Both the position numbers and the translations under genes were made by a program. A DNA stretch of 64,000 nt from Escherichia phage ph0011: the sequence record OP557969.1; one strand, written 5' to 3'. The notes under the pieces were generated by a model, which had not been told where the DNA came from, searched no databases, and saw nothing but the letters and a program-made list of their open reading frames with translations. This document shows positions 1,776 through 19,100 of this stretch, one piece after another; position 1 is the stretch's first letter, and every line of letters starts with the position of its first letter.

Positions 1776-3917
1776 TTATGGTAGGGTTATGTACGTTACT
1801 GGTTGGGCGGCTTTTAATGATGCACCAGCGGCAGTTGCTGTTATGATGGGATCTGCAATATCAATTCTATATACGTTATTAACAACATATACTGCACGAG
1901 TTATATACGTTTTCAAATCATCACCATTTTCTCCAGCACCAGATATGATGATCTCAGTTCCCGCCGCTTTTGCATATTGGTTATCACCCCATGACACACC
2001 CAATGCTTCTATGTACGTTTGTCCTACTACCGTTTGTCTAATTGTGTCATATTTTCCAAAAAATGAACCACCCACTGTTACAATATATTTTCCACCTGAT
2101 TTTTTATGTATAATCGTTCCTTCTGGGAAGTATCTTCCACCAGGGAAAGTATCATATGGAATATAATATTGTTCAACTACAGGTATTAGAACTGGGCCAC
2201 GATGACCAGTACCGTCAATAGCAGTTGTTACTTTAAAATTATTAGATGATTGGTCGATTCTATCTACGTACATTTTAGAAAAACTATATTTTGAAACATT
2301 ACAATCATCTTGAACAACACAGTTAGTCCAATTAGTATAAGTATATTTAGAGCGAGTATACATTCCCCCACCCTCACCTTCAGTGGAAAGGTGTTGTCCT
2401 ATTACATCTAATTCTTTTGTTCTGATATCACTAAACTTAGATGAAGATGGTAGACCACGCCAAAGAATTTTAGAACAAGTGATATTACTTAATTCTGTAC
2501 TATTCAGCCAATTATCAGAACCAGAAGTATAAACGAATACGGAAGACTCTGGTATATAGAGATTGGAAATTTTAAAGTTTCTAGGTGGTCCAGCAAATCG
2601 ACCAGCAGTTACCCCCCAGTTAATAGATACCATACGGTTTGTGATTGTAGGATCATTAAGTAAATGTCCGGTTAAACCATCAATTACAAACTCTTTTGAG
2701 CCATAAGTTATCACACCAGCAGTTGTTAATCCAGTACCAACTGAAATTAGAGATGATGGATACACTTCGTTATCAAGTATTTTAAAGTCCATTCCCAATT
2801 CAACATGGATACATTGTCTAACATTATAAATTCTATTGTTCTTAATAACAAAGTTTCTAACGTATTGGGTATCAGGTGCATCCAGACCATAAGGACCAGA
2901 ACCCGCAACACCAATACCGATACCCCAGTTTGAAAGTGGGATTGGTGCATCTGAACCATCAACGTTTTCAATGATATTACCTTCGATTACAAAACCATCA
3001 GGATAATGTGAGTTAATAACGTTTAATTCTATTGCATCACCATATATATCATGAATATGGTTGTAAGAATAACGCCCCACTTTCATTTTCTCACCAGTTC
3101 CTTGCTGAAGAACGCCATATTTACATTTGGTCATTTCATTAAAGCAAAAATCTATTGTTCCTGGTTGGGTCATACCTTGCATCAAAAACGCGGCAGTACT
3201 GGTAATGTTTACAAATTTATTAAAATAAAATTTACCATCCCCACCAAAGAATTTCAAATAACATCCAGTAAGTGTGGTGAATTGAATTTGTGAATTAATA
3301 ACGGATATCATAGTACCACCATTACCAGTAATAGTGCCACCAAACCAAGTTACATCTTCCAAATATACTGCTTTTTTGATACGATAATTACCACCTGCTT
3401 GAATTTGTATTTTATTTTCTTTGGCATAAGTTGCACACAAATTTACAGCTTCAGTGTCATCGGTTTCCCCATCTCCTTTCGCACCAAATTCTTCTGGTGT
3501 TATATAGAACTGTGCTTGTTGAACTGTGCCACCAGTAATAAGGCCAATGAAATCACCACCATTTTTACTTGATAGTACTTTTTTATTAATGTATAGTGAT
3601 TTAATCCATGTGCCATTTGTTTTTACGAAAATATCAACAATACCATCTTCATCAATTTGAAAATAAGTGTTATTGTTTTTTCCAATATCACCAGACGGTG
3701 GTTGAACGCCAAATAAGGCATTTGGATTATCTTCAAGGTATCTAACATTAACTGCTGAATCTTGGTCTGATGGTGTTCCTATCTTTAGTGGTAGAAACTT
3801 TTCACCGAGATAATCTTTTATCGATACGGAATCATTGACGAAATTTATCGAAGCACCATTTTTACCCAATATCATTTTTGGTTTCATGGTTCCTTCAAAA
3901 TTAGAAAATACTGCCAT
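1776..3917 (-). CDS. Tail fiber / tailspike-like protein (713 aa), possible beta-helix depolymerase-type C-terminal part
   Basis: ATG 3915-3917 with RBS AAGGGGGTG; N-terminus MAVFSNFEGTMKPKMILGKNGA shares domain with 863-1759; long G/N/T-rich body. Confidence 0.55.
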   Translation of the reverse strand: MAVFSNFEGTMKPKMILGKNGASINFVNDSVSIKDYLGEKFLPLKIGTPSDQDSAVNVRYLEDNPNALFGVQPPSGDIGKNNNTYFQIDEDGIVDIFVKTNGTWIKSLYINKKVLSSKNGGDFIGLITGGTVQQAQFYITPEEFGAKGDGETDDTEAVNLCATYAKENKIQIQAGGNYRIKKAVYLEDVTWFGGTITGNGGTMISVINSQIQFTTLTGCYLKFFGGDGKFYFNKFVNITSTAAFLMQGMTQPGTIDFCFNEMTKCKYGVLQQGTGEKMKVGRYSYNHIHDIYGDAIELNVINSHYPDGFVIEGNIIENVDGSDAPIPLSNWGIGIGVAGSGPYGLDAPDTQYVRNFVIKNNRIYNVRQCIHVELGMDFKILDNEVYPSSLISVGTGLTTAGVITYGSKEFVIDGLTGHLLNDPTITNRMVSINWGVTAGRFAGPPRNFKISNLYIPESSVFVYTSGSDNWLNSTELSNITCSKILWRGLPSSSKFSDIRTKELDVIGQHLSTEGEGGGMYTRSKYTYTNWTNCVVQDDCNVSKYSFSKMYVDRIDQSSNNFKVTTAIDGTGHRGPVLIPVVEQYYIPYDTFPGGRYFPEGTIIHKKSGGKYIVTVGGSFFGKYDTIRQTVVGQTYIEALGVSWGDNQYAKAAGTEIIISGAGENGDDLKTYITRAVYVVNNVYRIDIADPIITATAAGASLKAAQPVTYITLP

Positions 3918-3929
3918 TGTGACACCCCC

Positions 3930-5057
3930 TTAAATATTATCTTGAATAGGTTGGACCGGAGCTTGCCACGAAAGAGTACAAATAATTTCCATTTTACCAT
4001 AAGGACTGTTATTAACTGAATCATTGAATACACATGAAATAATTTCATCTACATCTGAAACTTCATGATTTGTTTCATTGACGATAAAACGCATCTGGTT
4101 ATTAATATCAAAGTAGGTTGTTGGTGCAATTACGGTTCCACCAATATTCTCGTTTGCTTCACCACCAAATCGAACAAACATATCAGTTACTGGTTGTGAA
4201 TAAGGTTGTAAAACATTTACATCTATATTAGAAACTACATATCCAGAAGGACAAGTCCCAATAACTAATAGAGCATTAGTCCATGATCTATCAATAACGT
4301 TTCTAATTGTTACAGTATCTTTGCCTGGTGCACCCGGTTCACCTTGCTTACCTTGAATACCTTGTGGACCTTCTTTACCACGGAATAAAATACCACTACT
4401 CCATTCTTTTGATGGTGGGGTGGTAGTTGTTACTTCATCCACATAATAAAGCTTACCATCAGTGTTGTTATAGAAACAATAATCAATTGGGAGGTTTTCA
4501 ATACTTGGAAATTGATCACCACTATCGTCAATATGAAAACGACCACGTGGACCTTGCTCACCACGGAAAGGAATACCATCACTCCATGTAGCTGTTACTT
4601 TTTGATAAAAATATAGTTTACCATCTTGTGTATTGTAAAATGTATAGTTATCAAAAAGACCAGAACTTGGAAAAGTAGTTCCTGCACTATCGATATGAAA
4701 AGGCTTACCAGCTTCACCAGTATCACCTTTACCAAATTCAACACTAGTCCAAGTACTGGTTTCTTCTTGTGCATCATTTGATTTAAAATACAGAGTACTT
4801 GTGTTATTTGCCAAACTAAGATAGCACCAGCCAAGCGGTTCACCAACTTTAAATTTATCAGATGGAACTTCAAAACCAATCTCATTAGGATAAAAGTTTT
4901 TACCGTTCTGACCATTTTGTCCCACAACAAGACCGAGATCTTGAATTGTATTATCTGTATATGTTACAATTAAATGACCAGCATTATTAATAACTAGACT
5001 TTTGATGCCTGAGTTATTACATGAACCACTGGACCCATTGTTAAATGTAATTGTCAT
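3930..5057 (-). CDS. Tail fiber protein with collagen-like Gly-X-Y segments and ~50-aa tandem repeats (375 aa)
   Basis: ATG 5055-5057, RBS AAAGGGAAA; GEQGPRG and GKEGPQGIQGKQGEPGAPGKD triplet runs; three repeats of the pattern DGKLYF...W..G.PFRG.QGP.G.FHIDD.G..FPS. Confidence 0.6.
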   Translation of the reverse strand: MTITFNNGSSGSCNNSGIKSLVINNAGHLIVTYTDNTIQDLGLVVGQNGQNGKNFYPNEIGFEVPSDKFKVGEPLGWCYLSLANNTSTLYFKSNDAQEETSTWTSVEFGKGDTGEAGKPFHIDSAGTTFPSSGLFDNYTFYNTQDGKLYFYQKVTATWSDGIPFRGEQGPRGRFHIDDSGDQFPSIENLPIDYCFYNNTDGKLYYVDEVTTTTPPSKEWSSGILFRGKEGPQGIQGKQGEPGAPGKDTVTIRNVIDRSWTNALLVIGTCPSGYVVSNIDVNVLQPYSQPVTDMFVRFGGEANENIGGTVIAPTTYFDINNQMRFIVNETNHEVSDVDEIISCVFNDSVNNSPYGKMEIICTLSWQAPVQPIQDNI

Positions 5058-5104
5058 AATATTTCCCTTTTATGAGTGAATGTCATATACCAATATTTAT
5101 CAGT

Positions 5105-5120
5105 ACGAAATACATTTCGT
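5105..5120. promoter_or_regulatory. Perfect 7-bp inverted repeat (ACGAAAT-AC-ATTTCGT) in divergent intergenic region, candidate operator
   Basis: Read directly from sequence; lies between minus-strand fiber gene start (5057) and plus-strand gene start (5167), next to ATAAATA-type motifs on both strands. Confidence 0.35.
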
Positions 5121-5166
5121 CACCATTAATAAATAAATGAAAGTTCACTACTAAAAGGGCTTAACA

Positions 5167-5664
5167 ATGGCATTAAGATCAAAAAACTTTCTTTTTAAAA
5201 GAAAAACAAAAGATGGTTCATGGCAAGATTTTCCTGAATCTGACAGTTGGTATCCAGCCCAATTGGATTATCAATGGAATGAACAAACATTACCACTACC
5301 AAGCGGTGGATATTATGGCAGCACTACAGGTTTGCATACCATTTCATTTACACTACGTAATTTCATTGGAAGAATTTATGTATTAGCAACATTAGCCAGC
5401 AATCCAACAGATGATGATTGGTTCCCAATTAAATTCACTGAAAGTTGTAAATATTATCTAGAATTTACGGATATGGTTATTTTAAATCCAAACGGTGGTG
5501 ATTTGATTAGACAACAAGGAACTACCGGAACATTTGCAGAAACATTAACAGGTAACTTTACATATCTTAAAGTTGGTATTGACCGAGATTATATCAGTAA
5601 GTACCCGTCTGATGTACAAAAAAGTTTAGCAGGTAAACTAGAACAAATTTTAATTAACTACTAA
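5167..5664 (+). CDS. Hypothetical protein (165 aa), first gene of plus-strand three-gene island
   Basis: ATG with RBS AAAGGG 7 nt upstream; no recognisable motif. Confidence 0.5.
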   Translation: MALRSKNFLFKRKTKDGSWQDFPESDSWYPAQLDYQWNEQTLPLPSGGYYGSTTGLHTISFTLRNFIGRIYVLATLASNPTDDDWFPIKFTESCKYYLEFTDMVILNPNGGDLIRQQGTTGTFAETLTGNFTYLKVGIDRDYISKYPSDVQKSLAGKLEQILINY

Positions 5665-5673
5665 GGATTAGAA

Positions 5674-6282
5674 ATGAAATTAGAAGCAGAACAACCAAAA
5701 CTATTTGTTAAAGGTCATGTCCTAATTACTGACGTTACTGATCCATCAAATCAAAAAATCGTTTTAGATAAATCTAACGCTATTCACCCAGAAAATATGA
5801 GTACTGCAATTGCTAATGCGTTAGCATACAATCAAGATAGTACCAGTATTCCTATTGGTTCAATTAGCGAAATGCGTTTTGGTAATGGTGGTACTGTAGT
5901 GTTAAGTACTGGGCGAGTCACGTACAAAAAACCACGCGTGACTTCCTTTGGTGGATTGTATTCACAAACATATTTAAAAAAAATCAACCCAAGAATTTCT
6001 GCTGGTATTGATTCACAGTATAATAACATCACAACAGTTCATATCCCAGGACAATCATATACTGATATTGTATGTATTTGTACACTTGGTTTAGGTGAAC
6101 CATCAGACCAAGGTGTAAGTTCAGGTACAAGTATGGATGGTACATATGTATTTGATGAATTGGGGTTATATACTGATGGTGATAGTGGTATTCCATTGAC
6201 ACATATCATTTTTCACCCAGTTGAGAAAAGTGCTAACCGTGTGTTACAAATTAAATACACAGTTCGTGTACAACTACAATAA
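5674..6282 (+). CDS. Hypothetical protein (202 aa)
   Basis: ATG 5674 with RBS AAGGA; tightly packed after previous stop; no recognisable motif. Confidence 0.5.
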   Translation: MKLEAEQPKLFVKGHVLITDVTDPSNQKIVLDKSNAIHPENMSTAIANALAYNQDSTSIPIGSISEMRFGNGGTVVLSTGRVTYKKPRVTSFGGLYSQTYLKKINPRISAGIDSQYNNITTVHIPGQSYTDIVCICTLGLGEPSDQGVSSGTSMDGTYVFDELGLYTDGDSGIPLTHIIFHPVEKSANRVLQIKYTVRVQLQ

Positions 6283-6294
6283 TGGGGTCAAATT

Positions 6295-7395
6295 ATGAGT
6301 GTAAGTTATACAATTTATAGAAGCAATGGTAGTGTTTATGCTACCATTCCAAATAATGTCATATTGGGGCCAAACCAACCAGGAAGTAACCCAGTTCCGT
6401 TGAATTTCGTCGGAAGAAATAAAGTAAGTTATGGACAAGCATGGAATGAAAACTTTTTACATTTAGTTGAGAATTTTAGTTCGGCTTCAGCACCACGCGG
6501 TAATGTGAACGGTCAACTATGGTACAGAAATGCTGGCAGTACTGGTGAATTATTGATATCATTGGTTGACAATGCTAGACAACCATCAGATGTTGTGAGT
6601 GAAGCTGAGTGGGCGTCTATTCCAATGATTTCTGTGTTTAATACCGTACCAGATGGTGAAAATAGTGTTATGGGTCGTATGGTATTAACCAGTAATGGTG
6701 ACTCACTTCGTGTATTAATGAAAAATAAAGAATGGCGTGAAATTCAAACATCACGCCCTGAGAATAAAGAATATACATCATTATTGGATATTAACTATGA
6801 TAATGGTAAAAAATATATTGAGTTTACACAAAATAATAGTACCAAGCCACTAGCATATTTTAACTTAGGAGGAACGTCACAAGTCGATACTAACAACTGG
6901 ACAACAGTAACTAACGGAACTGGTGTTTTTGAATTTGGTAGTAACTATTTCTATGAATTAAAAATTATGATTAGAGAGGTAAGCGATTCAACAGGTGAAA
7001 TTGTATCAGTTCCACATAATTCAAAAACATTTTTAATCAAAGGTCAATTTTATGTAGATAACCAAGGTACGTTTGTCCCTGGTTCTGTGGGTGCAAGTCA
7101 AATGCCAGACCCCCGCAGGATTACACATCTAGAAACCATTAAAGATGTCATTACCAGTAGTCGCCCGAACTGGGATGTGAACATGGTTATCAATGATGTA
7201 GATCCATCACTACCTAATCCAAACGGCACATCTAAAGCAGATTATGAAAACTGGGTTATTAACTCATTGAACTCTAATAAAAACTTGGGATTTAGAGTTG
7301 ATGGTAGTATTAGCAATCTTGCACCAGGTGAATCTGTGAAATTACAAGCATCAGTGTTGTTAAACATTACAGGTATTCCAATTATTGGTGTATAA
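6295..7395 (+). CDS. Hypothetical protein (366 aa), possibly virion or fiber-associated
   Basis: ATG 6295; G/N/S/T-rich composition similar to the fiber proteins; followed by bidirectional terminator. Confidence 0.45.
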   Translation: MSVSYTIYRSNGSVYATIPNNVILGPNQPGSNPVPLNFVGRNKVSYGQAWNENFLHLVENFSSASAPRGNVNGQLWYRNAGSTGELLISLVDNARQPSDVVSEAEWASIPMISVFNTVPDGENSVMGRMVLTSNGDSLRVLMKNKEWREIQTSRPENKEYTSLLDINYDNGKKYIEFTQNNSTKPLAYFNLGGTSQVDTNNWTTVTNGTGVFEFGSNYFYELKIMIREVSDSTGEIVSVPHNSKTFLIKGQFYVDNQGTFVPGSVGASQMPDPRRITHLETIKDVITSSRPNWDVNMVINDVDPSLPNPNGTSKADYENWVINSLNSNKNLGFRVDGSISNLAPGESVKLQASVLLNITGIPIIGV

Positions 7396-7400
7396 AAAAA

Positions 7401-7422
7401 GGAGCCACATGGCTCCTTTTTT
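7401..7422. terminator. Bidirectional intrinsic terminator
   Basis: Stem GGAGCC/GGCTCC with ACAT loop, A-run upstream and T-run downstream; sits between convergent genes 6295-7395 (+) and 7421-7885 (-). Confidence 0.75.
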
Positions 7423-7885
7423 AATATCTATATGGTAAACTATTGACAAACTGTGTACCTTCACGTATACTTTCCCATAATGAGTAAAAATCTTTCATCA
7501 AGTTTGTGTTAAGCAATGTGTTTTTTGCACCAGGGTGTAATGGTTTAGGCCACGAGCCGATTTTAACCCATGCATATCCAGAGCTTTCATGATTTAATGT
7601 TGGTATAAACTCATTCTCAACTACGATAACAAATGAATAATATTTAAATTTACCATTTTTTGTACAAAATACATCAAATGGTATAATATCAATAATATTT
7701 GGTATTGAGTCACCTAACTCTTCTTTAATTTCTCTCATAAGACCTTGTATTGGTGTTTCGTCGCGTTCAAGCTTTCCACCAACAAATGCCCAATTGTTCG
7801 AATAGGTACTTCTTTCAGAACGTAAATTTAACATCATATGTCCGGTACTTTTTGATAAAAATATAGCACCAACAGCTTCATTCAT
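7421..7885 (-). CDS. NUDIX hydrolase (154 aa)
   Basis: Nudix box GKLERDETPIQGLMREIKEELG fits Gx5Ex7REUxEExG; ATG 7883-7885 with RBS AAGGAGGTG. Confidence 0.85.
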   Translation of the reverse strand: MNEAVGAIFLSKSTGHMMLNLRSERSTYSNNWAFVGGKLERDETPIQGLMREIKEELGDSIPNIIDIIPFDVFCTKNGKFKYYSFVIVVENEFIPTLNHESSGYAWVKIGSWPKPLHPGAKNTLLNTNLMKDFYSLWESIREGTQFVNSLPYRY

Positions 7886-7897
7886 AACAACACCTCC

Positions 7898-9241
7898 TTA
7901 TTTGTCAGTGAAAGTTATTTTCCAATATCCTTGACGATAAACTGGCATAATACTTTTATGCCATTTAAATTTACCATTGTATCTATAATAACCATTATCT
8001 TCGTTGTTATAAATGTAATTACGCACAGTTGATGGGTCAATTAATTCAGCACCGTCGTTGGTAATTTTAAACAAATAATTCGAAGGAATTTCAGTTTCTT
8101 TGTAAATGATGTTATGCATACTGTTATTTACGTAATATTGTTCAGGTATTGCATCAAAAAGAACTGAGCTTTTTTGGACAAATCCATGAATAGTATAATC
8201 AACTGTATAGTTGCTACTATCAAGCTGAACGATAATTTTATTTGCATCTTCATCTTCACCATATGAAGAAATATAGCCTTTGAGTGGATTATCTTCTTCG
8301 ATTGATTGTTGAAATTTAATACCGACTTTTTTATCATCAAAATTGGGTTCCAAATATTTAAGATATTTTTCCCATGAGTATATACCACCATTAGGGGAAA
8401 CATCGGACAATGACTGACTAACTAAAGTTAGTTGATATGTATCTGGTAAATTATATAAAGAATTAGTTATCTCTTCAACTTTAATACATAAGTTTTTTGG
8501 TGTAAAGACATCAGTGATAATATCCGAATAGTCAGACATTTCAATGTCAAATTCATCACGAGCACCTTTTATATTAGTAGTGATCTGTTGAATCAATTTT
8601 GGTTTTTCAACAATAGCTGGTAAAGAAAACCATATTGTTGTTTCAAATGTCAATACCATAATGTCTAAATCTTGGTCAGTTCCTTGTGGAAATCCACGTG
8701 TAGAGAACTGACAATCAATCAACTCTACATCACTTAGTGATGTCCAATCCAACGGGTTTTCAGATAACTGAAGTTGAATACTCGGTGAAAATAAAGTTGA
8801 AATTTGCTCAAATAATTCCATCTTTGTTTGTATTTGAGTTACCCAGATATTCAAATCAAATGTAAATGTCCAAGGAACTGGGTTATGTCTTACGATTTTA
8901 TATTGTGAATCGAGTTCTTTTTTGTATTCATTAATGGCAGGTGATGTGTTTGTTCCCATAACTAATGTTTCATTCGCATTAGAACGTATACTTTTACGAT
9001 CCAGCTTTAGTTGATTAACACTGATTGTCATAATTGGTGCAGATGGAAGAACATTTTCACTATTACCATTGATAATTGCAGCAGCCATTCTTGATATATC
9101 CGCATAACGACATGGAACCTTTTTATATTTTGGGTTCCCATCAGCATCAACACCATTTTGTACTTGAAATTCACCAAAAACTCTGATAAGATGTTTCAGT
9201 ACTCTGCGAAATTGGCCGTCATAATAATAATCTATTTTCAT
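7898..9241 (-). CDS. Tail completion / sheath stabilizer-like protein (T4 gp15-like, 447 aa)
   Basis: N-terminal pattern YYYDGQFRRVLKHLIRVFGEFQVQ...YKKVPCRYADISRMAAAI resembles the T4 gp15 N-terminus as recalled from memory; ATGA overlap with upstream gene; position next to baseplate/fiber genes. Confidence 0.4.
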   Translation of the reverse strand: MKIDYYYDGQFRRVLKHLIRVFGEFQVQNGVDADGNPKYKKVPCRYADISRMAAAIINGNSENVLPSAPIMTISVNQLKLDRKSIRSNANETLVMGTNTSPAINEYKKELDSQYKIVRHNPVPWTFTFDLNIWVTQIQTKMELFEQISTLFSPSIQLQLSENPLDWTSLSDVELIDCQFSTRGFPQGTDQDLDIMVLTFETTIWFSLPAIVEKPKLIQQITTNIKGARDEFDIEMSDYSDIITDVFTPKNLCIKVEEITNSLYNLPDTYQLTLVSQSLSDVSPNGGIYSWEKYLKYLEPNFDDKKVGIKFQQSIEEDNPLKGYISSYGEDEDANKIIVQLDSSNYTVDYTIHGFVQKSSVLFDAIPEQYYVNNSMHNIIYKETEIPSNYLFKITNDGAELIDPSTVRNYIYNNEDNGYYRYNGKFKWHKSIMPVYRQGYWKITFTDK

Positions 9242-10731
9242 TCTGTGTCCTTATGTATACGATAAGCTGTATTTGGTTTAACTGCGTCATGTAATGGAAC
9301 TTTATTATCACTATTTACGAACTTAGTAAGTGCTAAATCTGCACCTTCCCACGGTTTTCTACCACCGTAATCAAAAATAACCCATGAATTCTTAGTTGCA
9401 TTGAATTCCCACAGTGTAACTGGTGTATAATCAGTACGGTAAAAGTAATCACCATCAACTGCATCAGTAGGGAACATGTTTCCTTCTGGAACTGTACCTC
9501 TTGCTGGTGGGATTTTAGGGCGATAATCCTGTTGTGCATCAATATTTCCATATACACAACTTGATGTGAATGGGTCATTGACGTAAGTTACTTTTGGTTC
9601 GCCCCATTTACCATCATTGTACTGAAAAATGTGTGGTTCTTTATAAAAAATACAAAAATCTTCAATATCTTTTGGTGGATTTTCACTGGTCGTGTATTCA
9701 ACATCACAATTTAACCATTTTTTAACACTTTTATCGTACTGGTATAGTGTATACCCAGTTACATCTACATCATTCTCTTTAAAGAAGAAATCACCATCCA
9801 TAGGTTTCTTAGGAAAAACGGTTCCACGCTTGACTTCCAGTGAAATCCATGTATCATTATCGTATTCTTTAAGTATTGGGTATGTTTTTTTCAAAAAATA
9901 CATACCACTTGCAGGTTCTTCGGGGAAATCATATCCATTAAGCATATACTTTGACAAATCAACAGTATCACGACGGTCATCATACAAATGCTCGTTGGTA
10001 TAATGAATATAAGGCACTTCATCATCAGCTTGCATAATGATACGATTCATAATATCCATTTCATTACTATAGTTACTGTTATCAGATGTACCATCATCAG
10101 TGTTACCATTACCATTATTTGGATCATTTGGGTTATCAGGGTAATTGTTGTTTCCTAGTAAGTCGGAGTACTCAGGAGAGTCAGTCAATGGCTTTACTCG
10201 AAGTTTATAAATGTGATGTTGCCAAGTAACAGAGTAACCTTCTGCTGTACGAAACGCATCTTGGACCACATAGAAGCGATTCAGACCAGAATCTTTACCA
10301 AGAACATCATAATCACGTAAATTTGGTAGTTCAATTACATCACCAGGCATGATTTTTCTACCCAATCGTTGCATCATGGTATTGTAGTGGATTGTAATGT
10401 CCATCGTGTTGAAATTAAAGAACAAACCTGGAATTTTCAAGTCAGGTGTTGCTTCTTGAACTTGATAGACACAACTTAGTGTGATTGCTTCAAGATTATA
10501 GTTTCTATTTGGGGTGTCTCCAAAAATTAAATCACCAATACTTGACACAACCGATCCAGAAGATGTATAATCACCGCCATATGATAAGTCTTTGTTATCT
10601 GCAACTTGTTTTGGGCCGACATAAGCGTAAAGCCACATGTCAACACCACCAATGTTGTATTGTTCAGCAATGGCAGAGTCAATGAACTTGTAATCATTGG
10701 TTCTACCTTTTTTCCACATTCTATATGTCAT
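9238..10731 (-). CDS. Hypothetical structural protein (neck gp13/gp14-like by position, 497 aa)
   Basis: ORF-track start at 10743 is TTG; ATG at 10729-10731 (MTYRMWKKG...) has RBS GGAGA 5 nt upstream, so start moved. Internal repeats DGDYFYRTDY / DGDFFFKENDVDVTGY. Confidence 0.45.
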   Translation of the reverse strand: MTYRMWKKGRTNDYKFIDSAIAEQYNIGGVDMWLYAYVGPKQVADNKDLSYGGDYTSSGSVVSSIGDLIFGDTPNRNYNLEAITLSCVYQVQEATPDLKIPGLFFNFNTMDITIHYNTMMQRLGRKIMPGDVIELPNLRDYDVLGKDSGLNRFYVVQDAFRTAEGYSVTWQHHIYKLRVKPLTDSPEYSDLLGNNNYPDNPNDPNNGNGNTDDGTSDNSNYSNEMDIMNRIIMQADDEVPYIHYTNEHLYDDRRDTVDLSKYMLNGYDFPEEPASGMYFLKKTYPILKEYDNDTWISLEVKRGTVFPKKPMDGDFFFKENDVDVTGYTLYQYDKSVKKWLNCDVEYTTSENPPKDIEDFCIFYKEPHIFQYNDGKWGEPKVTYVNDPFTSSCVYGNIDAQQDYRPKIPPARGTVPEGNMFPTDAVDGDYFYRTDYTPVTLWEFNATKNSWVIFDYGGRKPWEGADLALTKFVNSDNKVPLHDAVKPNTAYRIHKDTE

Positions 10732-10773
10732 ATTTGTCTCCAAAATAATTCGGGTATATCTTTATTTACCATG

Positions 10774-10801
10774 TAGACAAACCATAAGAATGTGATATAA
10801 T
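10774..10801 (+). promoter_or_regulatory. Sigma70-type promoter with extended -10 (TAGACA-N16-TGaTATAAT) upstream of the ClpA-like gene
   Basis: Hexamers read directly; ~40 nt upstream of ATG 10840, which has RBS GGAGA. Confidence 0.5.
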
Positions 10802-10839
10802 GTTTGTTAATTAGAGTGACGTGAATCACAGGAGAATAC

Positions 10840-13128
10840 ATGAATCTTACTCAATTGTTCAAAAAAAGCGACGAACTAGCAACATCCCTAGGTCATACTT
10901 TCTTGACTATTGACCATGTGAGTGCTACAGTACTGACTATTGATAGTATCAAGGGCGTGTTCGAAGAAATGAACATCGATGCTGACAAATTGCATAGTCG
11001 ACTGATGAACTATCTTAAAAATACAACGGTTCCAAGTGCACCAAAAAGTACACTCGATGAAGATGCTAATCGCACTTCACTTCTGGTGAACCGTGTTGTA
11101 CATGAGCTTTCGAAAAAATCAGTCATTGAACAACTAAAAAGTGATGATTTTTCGATTGATGCATATTTTGTTCTATTTGAATGTTTATCATTCCCAAACA
11201 CTGCACTTGAAGCTGCTTTGAAAGAAGAAGGCGTTAGCTGTACCGAAGCTGCTCGTGCACTACAGAAACACGTTGAGGCACTGGAAAAGGGTATCAACCT
11301 TCAAAGTATCAATGACGAACCTACTGGAGATAAAAAAGTGGCTCAACCACAGCAATCATCTAAACAAAAAGGTTTAGCAGACTATACAACAAACCTAACG
11401 GCACTTGCAAAAGAAGGCAAACTAGACCCAATGATTGGTCGCCAAAAAGAGCTATCTGCATTGATTGAGACTCTTGCTCGCAAAACCAAAAAGAATGCCA
11501 TCCTGACTGGTGAAGCTGGTGTTGGTAAAACACAAATCATCGACGGTCTTGCACAAGCAATTGCTGATGGTAATGTACCAGAGCACTTAAAAGATGTTGA
11601 AATTCTTTCCCTAAATGTTGGTGCGTTGACTGCTGGGACTAAGTATCGTGGTGAATTTGAGGAACGTATCGATAATTTACTAAAAGAACTAAAGAAACGT
11701 GAAAACACAATTGTTTTCATTGATGAAATCCATATTATGGTCGGAGCAGGTTCTGCAAGCAACGGTTCAATGGACATGAGCAATATGCTTAAACCAGCAC
11801 TATCACGTGGTGAGATTCGTGTAATTGGTGCAACAACATACGAAGAATATCGTAAAAACATCGAGAAAGATAGTGCATTGACTCGTCGTTTTATGAAAAT
11901 TGATGTTGTTGAACCGTCAATCGATGAAACTCGTGAAATTGTGAACGGTCTTAAATCAACTTATGAAAAATTCCATAACGTTGAGTTTACAAAAGATGCA
12001 ATGGATGCAGTAATTTCTCTCAGTGAGAAGTTCTTGAAAAATAAACACTTCCCAGATAAAGCAATTGACCTAATGGATGCTGCTGCTGCGAAAGTGCGTT
12101 CACGTGATAATAATAGTAAACTAATTACAGAGAATTTGATTCAAGAAGTTGTTGCTGGTATTGCTAACTTGGATATCAACGTGGTTGCATGTACAGAAAG
12201 TGAACGTATGCGTAATCTACCAGATGCACTACGTTCACGTGTTTACGGACAAGAAGAAGCGATTCAAAAATTGGTTGATAATGTAATGGTTGCTCGTGCT
12301 GGTCTACGTGATAAGTCGAGTGTTCAGGGTGCTTTTATGTTTGTTGGTCCGTCAGGTACTGGTAAAACAGAAATTACAAAAGCATTAGCTGAAGCAACGG
12401 GTTCAGAGCTTGTTCGTTTTGATATGTCTGAGTTTTCTCAAGAACATACTGTTTCAAAACTAATTGGTTCCCCTCCAGGTTATGTTGGTCACGATTCTGG
12501 TAATGGTTTGCTATTGGATAAGATTGAGCAGTTTCCTAATGCCATTCTACTACTCGATGAAATCGAGAAAGCAGATCGTAAAGTACTACTAACCTTCCTA
12601 CAGGTTCTGGACGAAGGACGTTTGACTGGCTCACAAGGTAAAACTGTTTACTTCAATAACGTAACTGTTATTATGACAACCAACCTTGGTGCGGCTGATT
12701 CAACAAAGCGTAGTATTGGGATGAGTGGTAGTGAAAGTGCACAAGACAAGGCAATTAAAGCATTCTTACCACCAGAATTCATTAACCGTATTGACAGTAT
12801 TGTTACGTTTAATGAACTAAGTAGTGAAGCAATTGACAGTATCATTGATAAATTCATGGGAAGTTTGAATGAACAAGTTAAACATCGCAACGTAAAAGTT
12901 TCACTAACGAAAGCTGCACGTGGATGGCTTGCAAAAAATGGTGTTCAGGTAGGTATGGGTGCACGACCAATGAAACGTACAATTGAACAAAACATTCGCG
13001 TACCACTAGCGAAGGAAATGTTGTGTGGTTCACTGGTAAATGGTGGTAACATTACATTTGATGTTATCAATGACAAACTTGGTATTAAACCAAAACGTAC
13101 TAAAGCAGTTGAAAAAACACTAGCTTAA
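10840..13128 (+). CDS. ClpA/ClpB-family AAA+ unfoldase (two-ATPase-domain Hsp100, 762 aa)
   Basis: D1 Walker A GEAGVGKT and Walker B IVFIDEIH; D2 Walker A GPSGTGKTE and Walker B LLLDEIEKA; GYVGHDSGNGLL; SIGM tripeptide loop where ClpA carries its ClpP-docking IGL loop; ClpA-like length. Confidence 0.9.
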   Translation: MNLTQLFKKSDELATSLGHTFLTIDHVSATVLTIDSIKGVFEEMNIDADKLHSRLMNYLKNTTVPSAPKSTLDEDANRTSLLVNRVVHELSKKSVIEQLKSDDFSIDAYFVLFECLSFPNTALEAALKEEGVSCTEAARALQKHVEALEKGINLQSINDEPTGDKKVAQPQQSSKQKGLADYTTNLTALAKEGKLDPMIGRQKELSALIETLARKTKKNAILTGEAGVGKTQIIDGLAQAIADGNVPEHLKDVEILSLNVGALTAGTKYRGEFEERIDNLLKELKKRENTIVFIDEIHIMVGAGSASNGSMDMSNMLKPALSRGEIRVIGATTYEEYRKNIEKDSALTRRFMKIDVVEPSIDETREIVNGLKSTYEKFHNVEFTKDAMDAVISLSEKFLKNKHFPDKAIDLMDAAAAKVRSRDNNSKLITENLIQEVVAGIANLDINVVACTESERMRNLPDALRSRVYGQEEAIQKLVDNVMVARAGLRDKSSVQGAFMFVGPSGTGKTEITKALAEATGSELVRFDMSEFSQEHTVSKLIGSPPGYVGHDSGNGLLLDKIEQFPNAILLLDEIEKADRKVLLTFLQVLDEGRLTGSQGKTVYFNNVTVIMTTNLGAADSTKRSIGMSGSESAQDKAIKAFLPPEFINRIDSIVTFNELSSEAIDSIIDKFMGSLNEQVKHRNVKVSLTKAARGWLAKNGVQVGMGARPMKRTIEQNIRVPLAKEMLCGSLVNGGNITFDVINDKLGIKPKRTKAVEKTLA

Positions 13129-13163: not shown

Positions 13164-16100
13164 TTACTTAACTATTAATATTTTTTGAATATCATTACCA
13201 CGAACTCGTAGACTGTTAGTATACACAGAAAGGTCTATTGTATAACTATTTTGAGTATAACGTTTAAACTTATCATAACCGCCCAAATTAATTCCGTTGA
13301 AAGAATATGTAGTATCATGTTTGAAATCGTGTTCTGCACTGTACATTACTCCACGGAGTAAGTTGTTTGTATTTCTAACTTCAACTTTTTCATATCCAAT
13401 CGATATAATGTCACTCTTGTTAGCAGCGGAGCCTGATAACACATTATTTCTAACATTATAATGGCTTACGGAAAGAGGTTGTGCTACATAAGTTGTGTTT
13501 TCTTCACTAATGGTTGTTATGTTAGTGATGGTAGCGTCAGCCACATCAATATACATACTATCAACCATTGGATATTCATACACCCACACACCTTCATTAT
13601 TTTTTGTCGGTTTGATATCTTTCGCATCATATTCAATCACGTTAATTTCTAAACAATCCGGCATTTTAGTTCTTACTAATTCACTAAGAACACCTTCCCC
13701 TGTAATTGGTAGATTATAACCGTTGTCTATAGTAATACCATCATCATTAAATATTTCATTTGATACAACCCAAACATCAACATCATCAGGTGTTACTCCG
13801 TCATTATACTTACCACCATTTAAAGTAGTATCATAAAAAACGTCATAATTAATCACATCAATGGTGTAATTTCTGTTTTGCTCATATAATTTAATATCAC
13901 CCTTGGTAAATTCTGGGTCAGCAAATGTTCTAACACGAACAATGTTCAATGCAAGATGTTGTACTGGCTGATTCAGTTGTCCAAGTGTGATGTTATCATA
14001 TCGAAGAACATTACCAGAACTATCAACCAACTCAATCGTTTCTTTTCCTGTAGTTCTTACAGTGAATAGAATAGGAGTTGTATTATGTTTGATATTAGAC
14101 ACACGTAATATGGTTTCCCATGTACGATTTTGATATCGAATAAAATCTTCACCATCCGGTGTGAAAATCATCACCTTATCACCATCAGATAAGTCACTGT
14201 CAACGATTTCAGCCTCAGTTAAGCTATTAATAGAACGTACACGATAGAAATATTTTTCTTCAAACGGTGATGCCGTTTTATTAATATCATGTTCAATCTT
14301 AGCATATGAAGGAATACTAACAATTGCTTCTGTATGTTTATATGGGTTGATAATTGCCATACCCTCGGTTTTATATCTGCTATTATTACGCAATTGCACT
14401 AGTGATTCAGTATCAAATCCATAACCATCAACAGTGAATCTAATATGCCCAACTGCACGACTAGCTGGATTTATTTCAGATATATCGATAATATAAGGAT
14501 CAACTTCATCATCTTTAACTTCCCATTTGATAGCTGAAGTTTGTGATTCTAATGCAAGGTTGTCAAATGCATTCATATCATTGAAGAACTTAGCTTCAGC
14601 AATACTATCAATTATATATTGATAATCCGAATACATAGGGTTATTTTGATCTTGTGGTAAATCATCTAGATTTATTTCAGCAAGTTTAATCATTTCACCA
14701 TTAGTAATGAAATAATCTTCCATGAAATCATCAATACTTTTATCATCTGGTATACTTTGGTATTCACCATTGATATTTAAGTAGACATGTTTTCTTGGCA
14801 TCATAGTAATAGCATAGATATCAATAGGTGTTTTTGAAAGAATTTCTTCTGCTTTTTCATACATATCAGCAGAGTCTTTATCAAACAACCCTCTCATGGC
14901 TGCCAGTACATGGACCGCATCGGAATAGAAACGTGTATCACCACCAATTTCATCATAACGATAAACATATACACCGTATTCAACTTCAAGTTTCACTTTA
15001 ATATCATGTTCAGATGCATCTGGATATTTTTCTGTAATAAAAGAAATATATTTTTCATATAATTCTTTACTTATTTCAAAATATCCATAGTTATAATCAT
15101 TACTTGAAGAAAAACCTAATGGTAGTCTAGTACTTGGGTTATCATTATAAACCAAACCACTAAATCCACAGCCAACCTCATCATGAATCTTATCATCACT
15201 GATATCTTTATAAAGTTTCAAACGGTTTGCTAATGTATTGTACTGAACATAGTGTCGAAGGTCAGTAAACATTTCATTATGCGTTGATTCGTTATAAATG
15301 CGTTCAAGTGTAGCAGTAAATTCATCAGTTGCTTCTAAATCATCAGCATGTTCTTTATACCACTGGTTTACACCATTTGCAGTTCCTAGTGTTACATCTA
15401 ATTCTGGATAGTACGTTTGTAATAGATACGCATTAACCAAGTCAAATGATTGTTCATTATACACAGGGTAAGAATATATATAACGTTGTAATTCATAGGT
15501 ATTAACAGAATCTTTTTCATTTGATTGATACTTATTATTAACACTAATCAACTCATTAATGTTTGCCAAATCTTTATTCGGTTTACATTGAATATTATCA
15601 TAATGCATAATAATATCAATTTCTTGAAATCTTCTATTTGGTGCAATAAAATCACTAGGCAGAGAACCTACTTTCTCCCATTTTTTAGTGGTTTCATTAT
15701 ATTGAGCGTACTCATAATCCCAAATATCCTTTTCAGTTTTAACCCACGAACCATCAACAAAAATATACCCATTAGGATCTAAATCATTACAAAGACCTTT
15801 GATTAAGTCATCATCAGACGTTTTTTGTTCTATCTGTGAACGGATTTTTGTACGATATGGTTTCACCTCTTCAAAGTACTCAACAATTTGGTTAATCAAA
15901 TTATCATTTGAATAGTTTTGTACCAAAGATTGTTCCAAACCAACAATATAGATATAGGATGTTTTAAATACCCAATCAACAACACCCTGTTCTACGTGTA
16001 CATATTTGACCATATCAAAAACAATTTCACTTTGGTGTAAATCGAAAGAATTTTTTAGCAAAGCAAGTGCTTTTCTAATATTAATTTCACGATTACTAAG

Positions 16101-19100
16101 TGAACCGTCCTCATTATGAACATTATAATCTACATAAAACAAATCGTTAAGCTCAATAGTACTACGTTGTCGCCCAATAGCTTTCCAATAAATTGAATCA
16201 CGTGATTGAGATTTGATATATAAAGTCCAAATGTTTTCACTATCTGTGACTCTAATTATATCACCAACTTGATAGTTTTTAGCATTTGCTTCTTCTAAAC
16301 TTATCTCTTGGATGTAAGCAGTTTTGCTATCATACCCAACATCATACCAATCTGCATAAGACCAGTATTGAGTCATATCTAATGATGTTCCGAGTGATTC
16401 AACATAATCCGATTGCTTAATCATTTTATGTTGTCCTTCACCTTTATTTTCTAAAGTTATAGTAACAACACTACCTGCATTAGCTGGACTATTCATTAAC
16501 TGAATATATCCGTTTTCATCGAAGTGAATAAAATAAACAGCACTAGTTGATAATGGAGTCGGTAGATAACCGCTAGAACTTAAAATAACAGCGTCATTTT
16601 CTTTAAATTTATCCTTTTCAACTGCAATTACAAGTTCATTATTATAAGTTAATACACGGAACGAAACCTCATTAGGGTTAACTTCTGTAGTTTTAACATT
16701 AAACACATCTTCCATAACAACACTATTAGTAGTTATGTTTTGTGATCTATAATAATTATTTGCACTTTCTACAAAGTTTCTACGTGCCTCTATTATATTC
16801 TGGAACCAAGTTTTATTAGAGCCTAAACCAGTGTCAACTTCTGGATATAATAAATCTACAACCTTACCTGACTTCGTAGTTTCTTGACCAATTAGAGAGT
16901 TCCACATAGAGTCCCAAATTAGTGGGTTAAAGTTGTAACTTTCACCCTCTTTGCAAAGTTGATATTGGTCATGTTTAACAACTTCTGTATTGTCCATATA
17001 GTAAGAAATAGTCAAAACACTAGTATCATCATTAACTTCAAACTGCATATTACTAAGAATAAAAGAGTTTTCATTAATTGGTGCGAACCAAGGAATGTTC
17101 AACTGTGATGGATCTTTAATAATACGTGCAATGTCAGTACATGATTTTGTTCTGGTATGAATAGGTGGTACATAAATTGTATCACGTACCCAGAAATAGT
17201 ATTTTGTTACATAACTGTCAGTGGAGCTATCATATTCCAAAAATGTACTATAATTATCTTCAAGTGCTGTTCCACTTGGAAGATACATATTATTATTTTT
17301 GTTTTTCTTAGCAACATCTTTACAGTACTTATCCCAGTTATATGGTTCTACTGGTGAACAAACCCATTCCAACACATCAATAGTACTATGTGGCAACAAA
17401 CGACCCCAGTTGTAACGTTTATATTCATTGGTTGCGTCAATATCAACATTTCCATCTGCATCATAAATGGCACGAGTATAATCCAAATAAAAAGCGGTGC
17501 TAGTGTTCCACCATACTTGACCAACTTTTTCAGCACCCCACGCCTGAACCAATTCGCCATTGCTATTATATTGAGCAGGGTCGATTGGTGAAGTATATGT
17601 TACGTTTTGCATTGCTGCACCAGGAATAACACCATTAATTGGGTCATAAACATTTAGATATAATGCAGTAATGTTTGTACGTTCATCATATGTAGTTGGA
17701 CGTTCAAACAAAGTACTTTGTGGTGCTTTAAAACTATATTTTTTATCAATATATGCTTGACGCTCTTCAGTACTCACAAAACGCGAAACATAACGATACA
17801 AACGAGGGCGTGTATCTGGGTCAGTAAATTCGATATTAATTGAAGTATCAAATGGAACCACCATAACTTTGGAATCATCCCCAGCAGTATAATATTGACT
17901 TTCTACTGTTAAAGTATCTGGCATAAAGTTAGTTTCGTCCACAAAATAATAGTAATCACCATCTTCAAGAGGGATATCATCAGATAGAGTTACTTTACAG
18001 AATTTCTCAGCGTAAACATCTGTGGTTTCGATTGGTGTAATAGAAACCATTTTAACATTAGTGTCAATTAATTCAAAAATGTTCCATAACCCATTTCCAT
18101 CTTTGAACATCCATACTGATTCAGGATTTTCACCTTTACCATTGATATACAACATACGGTCATTGAATGCAGTACTGAAATCTTTCGTAGTATAAGATAC
18201 TTCATCTAATGTAACTGGACCAATATCAGGCAGTTGGATGTGTTCACTTCTACCACTACGCATTGGGAAAGAGAATTTACCATTTGGACGAGTAATCCAT
18301 TGTGGGTCTTTTCCTTGTTCACCAAAGAATACAATATTGTTTCCATTACCATTTGATGTTGCATTTTCATCAAAAGACATCATTTGTGGCTGCTGCTTAA
18401 ATTGGTCATTAATCAATTTAAATTGAAGGTTTTTCTTTCCATCGATGTTACCATATGTACCAACTTTAAACGCCCATTCTTGTAATGCTTTATATTCATC
18501 AGTATCATAGGATTTAGAAACACGAAGAACACGTTCTAAAACTTGGTTTGTACCTTTGTCATGAATAAATCCTTTATAGAAATCAACACGACTTACATCA
18601 CTACTAATCATACGTTGTAGATAATCACGAGATTGATAACCAATCAAATGGCTAGACAATTCTTGTAATTGTACATCGCTAACGGGATGTTCATTGTCAT
18701 AGTAATGTTGAAAATCTGTTACTAGAGTTTCAAATGATGGTATTGTACCAGATTCCAAAATAATAAAACCAGGTGCTTGTAATCTACCAGTCCATGAACC
18801 AGTAATGTACCCATACATTTTAATTAGTTCCTGGATAGAACCATAAGTTGGTTGATAGATATAATCACCAAAAATAGTCTTATCATCAAATATAACAGCA
18901 TGTTCATATGAACACAAACTTAAGCGGATTAATGCAATACGCTTATTAGAATCGGTTGTTCTAACAGTGAATATATTACCAATACGTGAAGTTTCGATTT
19001 CATATTGACGAATACCTTGGTTATTATCATCAAGCAATGACCACACACCACCATTATTTTGTGTAATAGACTGTACTGAACCAAAATCCGAACCAAACTT

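Follow-up and report, generated by a model that had tools for sequence, protein, structure and literature searches.

Escherichia phage ph0011 carries, within the 64,000-nucleotide stretch of its sequence (record OP557969.1) that is called the window here, a small gene for a Nudix hydrolase (7421..7885, minus strand; ATG at 7885-7883, stop codon at 7423-7421; 154 residues). It lies directly behind a long homologue, designated gp15L, of the gene for gp15, the tail-sheath stabiliser and terminator of phage T4. The order gp15L-Nudix is ancestral and has been passed down vertically within a very large clade of large T4-related phages, which takes in the Rak2-like phages, phage PA5oct and numerous uncultured phages of marine and fresh waters: the Nudix gene is a core gene of that clade and no sporadic "moron". 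Its products form a defined subfamily of Nudix proteins with clear signature motifs, confined to phages and, in hundreds of large phages that are uncultured, tied to the tail-terminator gene, and homology connects this subfamily with the Nudix domains of polyvalent effector proteins that other phages are predicted to inject. What does such an enzyme hydrolyse? The tentative answer, to which we assign a probability of about 40%, is a nucleoside diphosphate derivative (NDP-X) of the ADP-ribose/NAD type rather than an oxidised or surplus deoxynucleoside triphosphate (dNTP). The answer bears on a more general proposal, that Nudix genes placed in morphogenesis clusters are counter-measures directed at NAD and ADP-ribose metabolism.

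The gene and its product

The identity of this gene is already known: it falls in PHROG 1198 and is annotated as MutT/NUDIX in dozens of GenBank records. The window belongs to an Asteriusvirus-like jumbo coliphage; its positions 5000-11000 are 88-90% identical in nucleotide sequence to the Asteriusvirus coliphages (UE-S1, 121Q, PBECO4, phAPEC6 and others), with no deposited phage closer than that, in whose records the Nudix orthologues, 96% identical in amino acid sequence, go by the names 'MutT-like' or 'MutT/NUDIX hydrolase'. RaK2, K64-1, GAP32, CBB and related jumbo phages have the gene in the same position, with 73-78% identity of the protein. (The orthologues with names of their own are 121Q gp578, phAPEC6 gp249, RaK2 gp066 or 'mutT', CBB gp232 and GAP32_226; PBECO4 also has one.) The Rak2-like orthologues match the window protein in length, in their place after the gp15-like gene and in the convergent structural gene that follows, and differ from it in nothing of substance. 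A literature search found no study of the protein that goes beyond annotation. Taken by itself the gene is ordinary and catalogued, and its conserved context is of modest interest; what is added here is comparative: the stability of the gp15L-Nudix pair, the motifs of the subfamily, and the homology link to the Nudix domains of polyvalent effectors.

The clear Nudix box to which an earlier note, made from the bare sequence, had drawn attention is indeed present, at residues 37-59 (7709..7777, minus strand). It reads G37-KLERD-E43-TPIQGLM-R51 E52 I K E55 E56 L G58 D59, to be compared with the consensus GX5EX7REUXEEXGU; R51, E52, E55 and E56 are its catalytic residues, as read from the translation. 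The sole departure is D59, at the last and loosely defined position of the box, where a hydrophobic residue is expected. The Pfam NUDIX model (PF00293) matches the protein with 56.8 bits (cut-off 21.1; E=3e-15), and the PHROG 1198 profile, 'MutT/NUDIX hydrolase', matches it from residue 1 to residue 153 (E=8e-45). The protein has the alpha/beta/alpha Nudix fold, and its AlphaFold2 model, for which 32 homologues were supplied, reaches a predicted local distance difference test (pLDDT) score of 92.3 and a predicted template modelling (pTM) score of 0.86. By these profile matches and this predicted fold the open reading frame (ORF) is confirmed as a putative Nudix hydrolase, bona fide and not the bearer of a chance motif.

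The protein is intact and under strong purifying selection, and its active site is complete. Eighteen residues are invariant in all 74 of the distinct family sequences among the matches listed (the sample to which the invariance and co-divergence counts below also refer): R22, W32, G36, G37, E43, R51, E52, E55, E56, F80, E92, F93, P95, N98, E100, W106, H117 and G119, the whole catalytic set among them. E100 (codon at 7586..7588, minus strand) is an invariant glutamate outside the box; it aligns with E198, the catalytic-loop glutamate of Dcp2, that is, with the residue that is a glutamine in the E198Q Dcp2 mutant chains. H117 and G119 belong to WPKPLHPGA, a family signature at residues 112-120 (7526..7552, minus strand) just ahead of the C-terminal helix. 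The ratio of nonsynonymous to synonymous divergence (dN/dS) between the window gene and its 121Q counterpart is 0.041, similar to that of the flanking structural genes. The predicted enzyme would accordingly be a stand-alone Nudix pyrophosphohydrolase that is catalytically competent and depends on a metal; E52, E55, E56 and E100 would act jointly to cleave the substrate at its pyrophosphate.

One feature of the same comparison stands apart. The synonymous divergence (dS) of the Nudix gene from 121Q is 0.40; that of three neighbouring genes is 0.83-1.06, more than double. Recombination, or a constraint acting at the nucleotide level, could be the cause.

A gene pair and its inheritance

A scan of IMG/VR found relatives encoded in at least 599 of at least 600 candidate stretches, and 80 loci were kept for the analysis of synteny. 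In every one of the 80, gp15L lies upstream of the Nudix gene on the same strand, with Nudix proteins 42-72% identical to that of the window. The two genes are separated by no more than 55 nucleotides in 67 loci and overlap in 31 of these; inserts apart, the spacing ranges over the 80 loci from an overlap of up to 58 nucleotides to a gap of up to 55. An insert of 0.3-0.74 kb comes between gp15L and Nudix in the other 13. (In two loci the insert is an HNH homing endonuclease gene on the opposite strand: L044 3390-3968 and L047 531-1301, both minus. In at least four others, L034, L039, L062 and L069, an ORF without annotation, about 175-230 residues long, is inserted at about 3340-4000 on the plus strand, with a motif '...YDGHxCIHE...' and no known domain.)

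The pair is found in 121Q, phAPEC6, RaK2, CBB, GAP32 and PA5oct. The last of these belongs to another family of phages, and its Nudix protein, gp161, encoded directly after gp15L, is 54% identical to that of the window by tblastn (47% in a full-length alignment). Four metagenome contigs (L006-L009) also keep the pair, with Nudix proteins that are 42-49% identical. PA5oct gp161 and its counterparts in uncultured marine and freshwater T4-related phages are of the same subfamily (42-55% identity), retain the same invariant residues and stand in the same gene order; they differ from the window in the genes downstream and, at some loci, in having the HNH endonuclease or an ORF of about 200 residues inserted. 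In the short-gp15 phages XacN1 and RAS14 the sheath gene comes directly next.

The members of the pair have also diverged together: a Mantel test of gp15L against Nudix distances gives r=0.79, a value that 0 of 999 permutations reach. The Nudix protein is the more conserved of the two, with a mean identity to the window of 47.5% over the 74 distinct pairs, to be set against 30.7% for gp15L. The family is confined to phages: no member of it turned up when the genomes of 185,579 bacterial and archaeal species were scanned twice. A cellular or prophage origin was considered and rejected on this ground, the lone DNA match in those genomes being a chance one to glycosyltransferase genes. Judged by sequence, the phage-only subfamily is marked by three motifs, TGR...RS, EFxPxLNxE and WPxPLHxG.

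Certain of these relatives deserve comment in their own right. The PA5oct gene (EST35_0161; L002 5872-6420, or MK797984.1 93958-94506) has been annotated from an internal ATG as a protein of 105 residues, so that beta-strands one to three of the fold are lost; the reading frame is open as far back as 5872, and homology sets in at about 5986, overlapping the gp15L stop codon. Contigs L007, L008 and L009 encode a homologue of ribosomal protein L11 (438-863, minus strand; Ribosomal_L11_N and Ribosomal_L11 domains) that adjoins a gene resembling deoxynucleoside monophosphate (dNMP) kinases and a T4 gp13-like neck gene. In L006, a contig of 126 kb, a set of nucleotide-sugar genes follows directly downstream of Nudix (5453-8957): an HldE-like fusion of PfkB-like and cytidylyltransferase-like parts, an epimerase/dehydratase and a PNK3P/HAD phosphatase, with 2OG-Fe(II) oxygenases as well. 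By domain content, the set may constitute a pathway of the ADP-heptose type.

Kinship with other Nudix proteins

The earlier note would have been refuted by clear orthology to T4 NudE-type housekeeping enzymes with the same genomic context in relatives. Such a refutation does not come about, and orthology with T4 NudE (NudE.1) is rejected: BLASTP aligns the two proteins at 25% identity with E=0.004, the family profile gives T4 NudE 17.3 bits when members receive about 200, and hhalign aligns only the region of the box (columns 7-101). The two are alike in being phage-encoded stand-alone proteins of similar size (151 residues for T4 NudE) with neighbours that are not metabolic genes, but these neighbours are not the same: T4 nudE is located between e (lysozyme) and e.2, adjoining internal-protein genes, and the window gene follows gp15L. 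(T4 gp15 itself is followed by the terminase genes.)

Nor does any other named class of Nudix enzyme accommodate the protein. No NCBIfam equivalog (MutT, NudG, NudI, RppH, NudB, NadM and NudE were at issue) comes near its cut-off. The MutT equivalogs TIGR00586/NF008044 score 34.7 bits with a cut-off of 97.9 and 36.8 with a cut-off of 148, and only the box region aligns; NudG and NudI (NF007834 and NF012016) score 32.7 bits against 156 and 32.4 against 95; the best score of the RppH equivalogs (PRK00714) is 26.4 bits, with a cut-off of 118. As a single-domain protein of 154 residues it also falls outside the NadM/NatV type of fused nicotinamide mononucleotide adenylyltransferase (NMNAT) and Nudix domains (NF003791 scores 19 bits against 409). 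Viewed from the other side, NudI, NudG (Orf135) and MutT of E. coli and Salmonella score 48-55 bits on the family profile, where members score about 200; their equivalog cut-offs are missed three- to four-fold by the window protein, and the C-terminal signature WPKPLHPGA belongs to the phage family alone. By these scores the protein is placed outside the T4 NudE, MutT, NudG/NudI and RppH equivalog families. Comparison with proteins of known structure is equally non-committal. When the single sequence is used, the Nudix domain of yeast Dcp2 (E=2.5e-7) and Bdellovibrio RppH lead the search of the Protein Data Bank, with E of about 1e-7; when the family profile is used, MutT proteins, NudG and NudI lead (best E=7.7e-12, 48 bits). 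Both fold searches place NudI first in a very flat list of hits. The judgement of the earlier note that the substrate cannot be read from the sequence is borne out by this flatness and by the equivalog scores.

The closest relatives outside the stand-alone clade are of another kind. A profile search of 1.84 billion representative proteins returned about 60 stand-alone members and then a tier at 115-133 bits, which consists mostly of Nudix domains within proteins of 250-1900 residues and lies far above any characterised Nudix protein (bacterial MutT-like proteins at 48-55 bits and T4 NudE at 17, on the same profile). The match of these Nudix domains, at 115-132 bits, extends over the whole domain, and the domains of this tier share TGR..RS, TWG.[WF]GG, EFxPxLNWE and WPxPLH[FP]G with the family; these shared motifs, which are the basis of a grouping made here, are present in the window protein. 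ADP-ribosyltransferase (ART) domains accompany the Nudix domain in 9 of 58 multidomain relatives (7 ART-PolyVal, 2 ADPrib_exo_Tox), lysozyme, cell-wall hydrolase, ParB and GNAT domains are found in others, and one multidomain relative has an ART-PolyVal gene two genes upstream. Such a set of domains is that of the polyvalent proteins of phages and conjugative elements, which are predicted to enter the cell with the DNA and to serve as early effectors (Iyer et al. 2017, PMC5512222). The same broad subfamily includes ORF109 of phiRSL1 (94.5 bits), which is three to five genes away from a nicotinamide phosphoribosyltransferase gene and an NMNAT-Nudix gene.

The polyvalent versions differ from the window protein in being embedded in large proteins, in a conserved linker (H..AL..TGFWG) ahead of the domain and in an alanine at the position of K38; the window protein is the single-domain product of a tail operon, and its ORF, which has a ribosome-binding site and a stop codon to itself, is not embedded in anything larger. 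Variations on the multidomain theme exist: two metagenomic proteins, P0108 (320 residues) and P0110 (628 residues), have tandem Nudix-Nudix domains of the same subfamily, and the C-terminal 350 or so residues of P0110 have no Pfam match. Tunturiibacter phage Tunturi_5 (308 kb) has an ART-PolyVal-like segment within a gene annotated as MutT/NUDIX (PP885688.1 227014-227523); on this evidence Tunturi_5 would provide, in a cultured jumbo phage, an example of the Nudix-ART fusions seen in metagenomes.

Substrates: a favoured reading and its competitors

Position 38 of the window protein, which we take to be the equivalent of the conserved lysine after GG that is K39 in MutT, is a lysine in 54 of the 74 family members and M, T or L in 18 (M in 15); it is an alanine in the polyvalent-protein relatives. 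In 121Q, gp37 is a nucleoside triphosphate pyrophosphohydrolase of the MazG/PRA-PH type, encoded beside NrdA, NrdB and DHFR in the nucleotide-metabolism cluster; the earlier note's contrast between a structural setting for the Nudix gene and a nucleotide-metabolism one is sustained by this arrangement, since that cluster has its own MazG-like enzyme instead. An NDP-X substrate of the ADP-ribose/NAD type is preferred to dNTP sanitation because this separate enzyme exists in the NrdA/NrdB/DHFR cluster, because the lysine equivalent to MutT K39 is not conserved, because kinship to the polyvalent-protein effector domains is much the closer, and because the viral Nudix enzymes that have been characterised act on ADP-ribose, NADH, ApnA or RNA caps and not on 8-oxo-dGTP (PMC9503650; NudE.1). 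Little certainty attaches to this choice of substrate, which might be either a free metabolite or a derivative used in host immunity or signalling.

A good deal can be said against this preference. The best-matching characterised relatives are, after all, MutT, NudG and NudI. A slow-evolving core gene fits a housekeeping function better than counter-defence, which is usually patchy in its distribution. The fusion of Nudix with ART domains carries limited information, ARTs being the commonest domain of polyvalent proteins anyway, and tblastn found an ART-PolyVal homologue in no Rak2-like phage (30 phage records were matched). Synteny has its exceptions: members of one clade of the family (P0072) are not beside gp15L, and Atu_ph07 has a long gp15 with no Nudix gene downstream. 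Reportedly, Dunn et al. formulated rules in 1999 by which a proline about 16 residues past the box marks ADP-ribose pyrophosphatases and SQPWPFPxS marks NADH pyrophosphatases. These rules are weak predictors; residues 74-76 of the window protein are C, T and K, and it lacks SQPWPFPxS. The annotation of 121Q, of which 200 kb was read for NAD-related genes, is uninformative because nearly all of it says 'hypothetical protein'.

The housekeeping alternative is a pyrophosphohydrolase of (d)NTPs of the MutT/NudG/NudI type that cleans out oxidised or non-canonical dNTPs or trims pyrimidine dNTPs: an antimutator or pool-shaping enzyme for an AT-rich genome of 350 kb during replication and packaging, which finds itself in a structural operon by accident. 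We regard it as possible, if on the doubtful side. Core-gene behaviour and very slow evolution suit it; the structures at the top of the profile search are those of MutT (5x1x at E=7.7e-12, 4v14, 3hhj), NudG (2rrk) and NudI (6dt3); and a stretch of the window protein, R22...W32-x-F34-x-G-G-K38, is MutT-like. RaK2 reportedly lacks homologues of dUTPase and dCTPase and has a dCMP deaminase, a thymidylate synthase and a dNMP kinase (RaK2 paper), and structural and DNA-metabolism genes share a middle/late class in PA5oct. Set against these are the variability of position 38, the failure of the MutT, NudG and NudI equivalogs (33-37 bits with cut-offs of 95-156), the dedicated MazG/PRA-PH-type enzyme of the 121Q cluster, the substrates of characterised viral Nudix enzymes, and the nature of the nearest relatives, effector domains in which dNTP sanitation makes little sense. 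(A narrower version, suggested by the RaK2 paper, would make the Nudix protein the missing dUTPase or dCTPase; it is weakened by 121Q gp37 in its place beside NrdA/NrdB/DHFR.) The 5' ends of RNA offer a further class of substrate, which we consider unlikely: an RppH-like removal of pyrophosphate, or a removal of NAD or other caps as by NudC, NudE.1 or Dcp2, would provide a late product that hastens the decay of host transcripts or of earlier ones of the phage. Poxvirus D10, a late decapping enzyme, would be the functional analogue. The alignment with yeast Dcp2 spans residues 25-137, including E100 at the place of E198, Dcp2 and RppH stay within the top ten when the family profile replaces the single sequence, some relatives have weak Nudt16-like matches, and T4 NudE.1 decaps NAD-RNA in vitro (bioRxiv 10.1101/2024.04.04.588121). 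Yet RNA-directed Nudix proteins score no better than many unrelated Nudix classes, the RppH equivalogs reach 26 bits where at least 116 is called for, and the family would seem to have no conserved basic surface, with isoelectric points that span 4.7 to 9.7 and are acidic in the Rak2-like members (6.3 for the window, 4.7 for GAP32).

Returning to ADP-ribose/NAD-type NDP-X compounds, a more pointed version can be put forward, albeit as an improbable one: the Nudix protein as a core counter-signalling enzyme, made together with the late structural proteins that trigger the abortive-infection sensors of the host, with perhaps a few copies sitting at the tail terminator. Its targets would be ADP-ribose-based messengers (the cyclic ADP-ribose isomers of Thoeris-type systems, His-ADP-ribose and the like) or NAD-derived caps. 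If true, this would make an anti-defence gene core rather than accessory across an entire clade of large T4-related phages, and would make the enzyme evolutionarily one with the module that is delivered by other phages as part of their polyvalent effectors.

Is the protein carried by the virion?

A check by virion proteomics, recommended in the earlier note, implied that the Nudix protein might be a virion component; the published proteomes argue against it. The 62 virion proteins of phAPEC6 include gp248 (gp15L), gp250c, gp251c and gp253 and not the Nudix protein gp249; the 55 of CBB include 230, 231, 233 (gp15L) and 234 and not Nudix 232; and among the 93 of PA5oct the 'ESI-MS/MS' flag is attached to gp159, 162 (gp15L), 163, 165 and 166 and not to Nudix gp161. 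The product of the gene immediately upstream of gp15L is found in the CBB and PA5oct proteomes and is not listed for phAPEC6.

What would remain is a low-copy passenger, assembled with the gp15L hexamer or the neck, or packaged, and delivered to the next host as an early effector. We think it quite unlikely, in view of absence from the proteins detected in three independent virion proteomes, in all three of which gp15L was detected. It would make sense of the strict adjacency to gp15L, and the stop/start overlap at many loci suggests translational coupling; injection is predicted for the polyvalent proteins whose domains are the nearest relatives; there is a weak PHROG match to a family of portal-Nudix fusions (phrog_15528); and packaging has been proposed for Nudix, Macro and NADAR proteins whose genes lie among those for morphogenesis (Iyer et al. 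2022, PMC9503650). A concealed fusion, with Nudix reached from gp15L by readthrough or frameshifting, was also considered; it is rejected as a conserved device because the relative frame of the two genes varies between close relatives (the window and CBB have both in one frame, 121Q and GAP32 do not). The Nudix enzyme is accordingly pictured as one that would act in the cytoplasm of the infected cell and that, if packaged at all, would be present below the level of detection in the three proteomes.

The thymidylate synthase of phAPEC6, gp259c, is listed as virion-associated (PMC7247149 Table 1). This brings to mind the claims once made for the T4 baseplate, in which thymidylate synthase and DHFR were said to be present.

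The proposed transcription unit and its surroundings

The earlier note had placed the Nudix gene directly downstream of a gp15-like gene, as the last gene of a neck/tail-completion unit, and the layout of the region agrees. The unit, all of it on the minus strand, begins with the gene for a virion structural protein of 497 residues (9238..10731; PHROG 11591, E=2e-263), whose end overlaps the start of gp15L by 4 nucleotides. An automatic call starts the ORF of this first gene at TTG 10743; the PHROG 11591 alignment begins at residue 5, the 121Q counterpart, gp580, is 1494 nucleotides long, and the true start is probably ATG 10731 (MTYRMWKK...), which gives the length of 121Q gp580. The second gene, gp15L (7898..9241, 447 residues), is identified by PHROG 11196 (E=4e-222) and by Pfam: T4-gp15_tss (PF16724) matches residues 5-234 with 74.4 bits (cut-off 25; E=1e-20). 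It is about 175 residues longer than T4 gp15, in comparison with which some 210 residues at its C-terminal end are additional. The spacer between the gp15L stop codon and the Nudix ATG is 12 nucleotides long (7886..7897) and contains a Shine-Dalgarno sequence, GGAGGTG, at 7891-7897, so placed that Nudix would be translated from a strong ribosome-binding site of its own.

Beyond the Nudix gene lies a strong intrinsic terminator of the form A7-GGAGCC-ACAT-GGCTCC-T6 (7394..7423), which is bidirectional: it is placed exactly between the Nudix stop codon and that of a convergent structural gene (6295..7395) and is common to both. The folding free energy of its hairpin is -17.8 kcal/mol (z=-5.87; none of 200 shuffled sequences folds equally well). 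A terminator scan detected no terminator-like site at the gp15L-Nudix junction, and all that it detected elsewhere in the unit, the terminator apart, is one weak hairpin within the coding sequence of gp15L (7943-7963). As for initiation, a motif scan finds GTAAATA at 10763..10769 on the minus strand, about 30 nucleotides upstream of the first gene; it resembles ATAAATA, the late-promoter consensus proposed for CBB and GAP32 (PMC5259590), and may serve as the promoter of the unit. No late-promoter-like xTAAATA motif was found within 80 nucleotides of the Nudix ATG. Exact copies of the T4 late motif TATAAATA show no enrichment over the window (6 found, 10 expected), and a scan for sigma-70 promoters is uninformative (40 sites found, 41 expected).

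Because the spacer is 12 nucleotides long, a terminator follows and a late-like motif is found only before the first gene, the natural reading is that Nudix is the last gene of a neck/tail-completion operon. The proposed order is virion protein of 497 residues, long gp15, Nudix, terminator, with Nudix as the promoter-distal cistron. We infer that gp15L and Nudix are transcribed together and late: promoter-distal in a late neck/tail-terminator unit, the Nudix protein would, on this proposal, therefore be made late, alongside the tail-completion proteins.

Elsewhere the window contains the core structural and replication genes of a T4-related jumbo phage: those for a portal protein, a prohead protease, a gp23-like capsid protein, a baseplate hub-lysozyme, a gp46/47-like nuclease, a ClpA-like ATPase and a family-B DNA polymerase. 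The ATPase gene (10840-13128, plus strand) is divergent from the neck/tail-terminator unit and encodes a full two-ring AAA+ enzyme of the ClpA/ClpB type (AAA, AAA_lid_9, AAA_2 and ClpB_D2-small domains); 121Q has a ClpS-like adaptor, gp48. Beyond it, on the minus strand, a single ORF of 10 kb (13164-23165) encodes a protein of 3333 residues, whose phAPEC6 counterpart, gp245 (381.9 kDa), has been detected in the virion.

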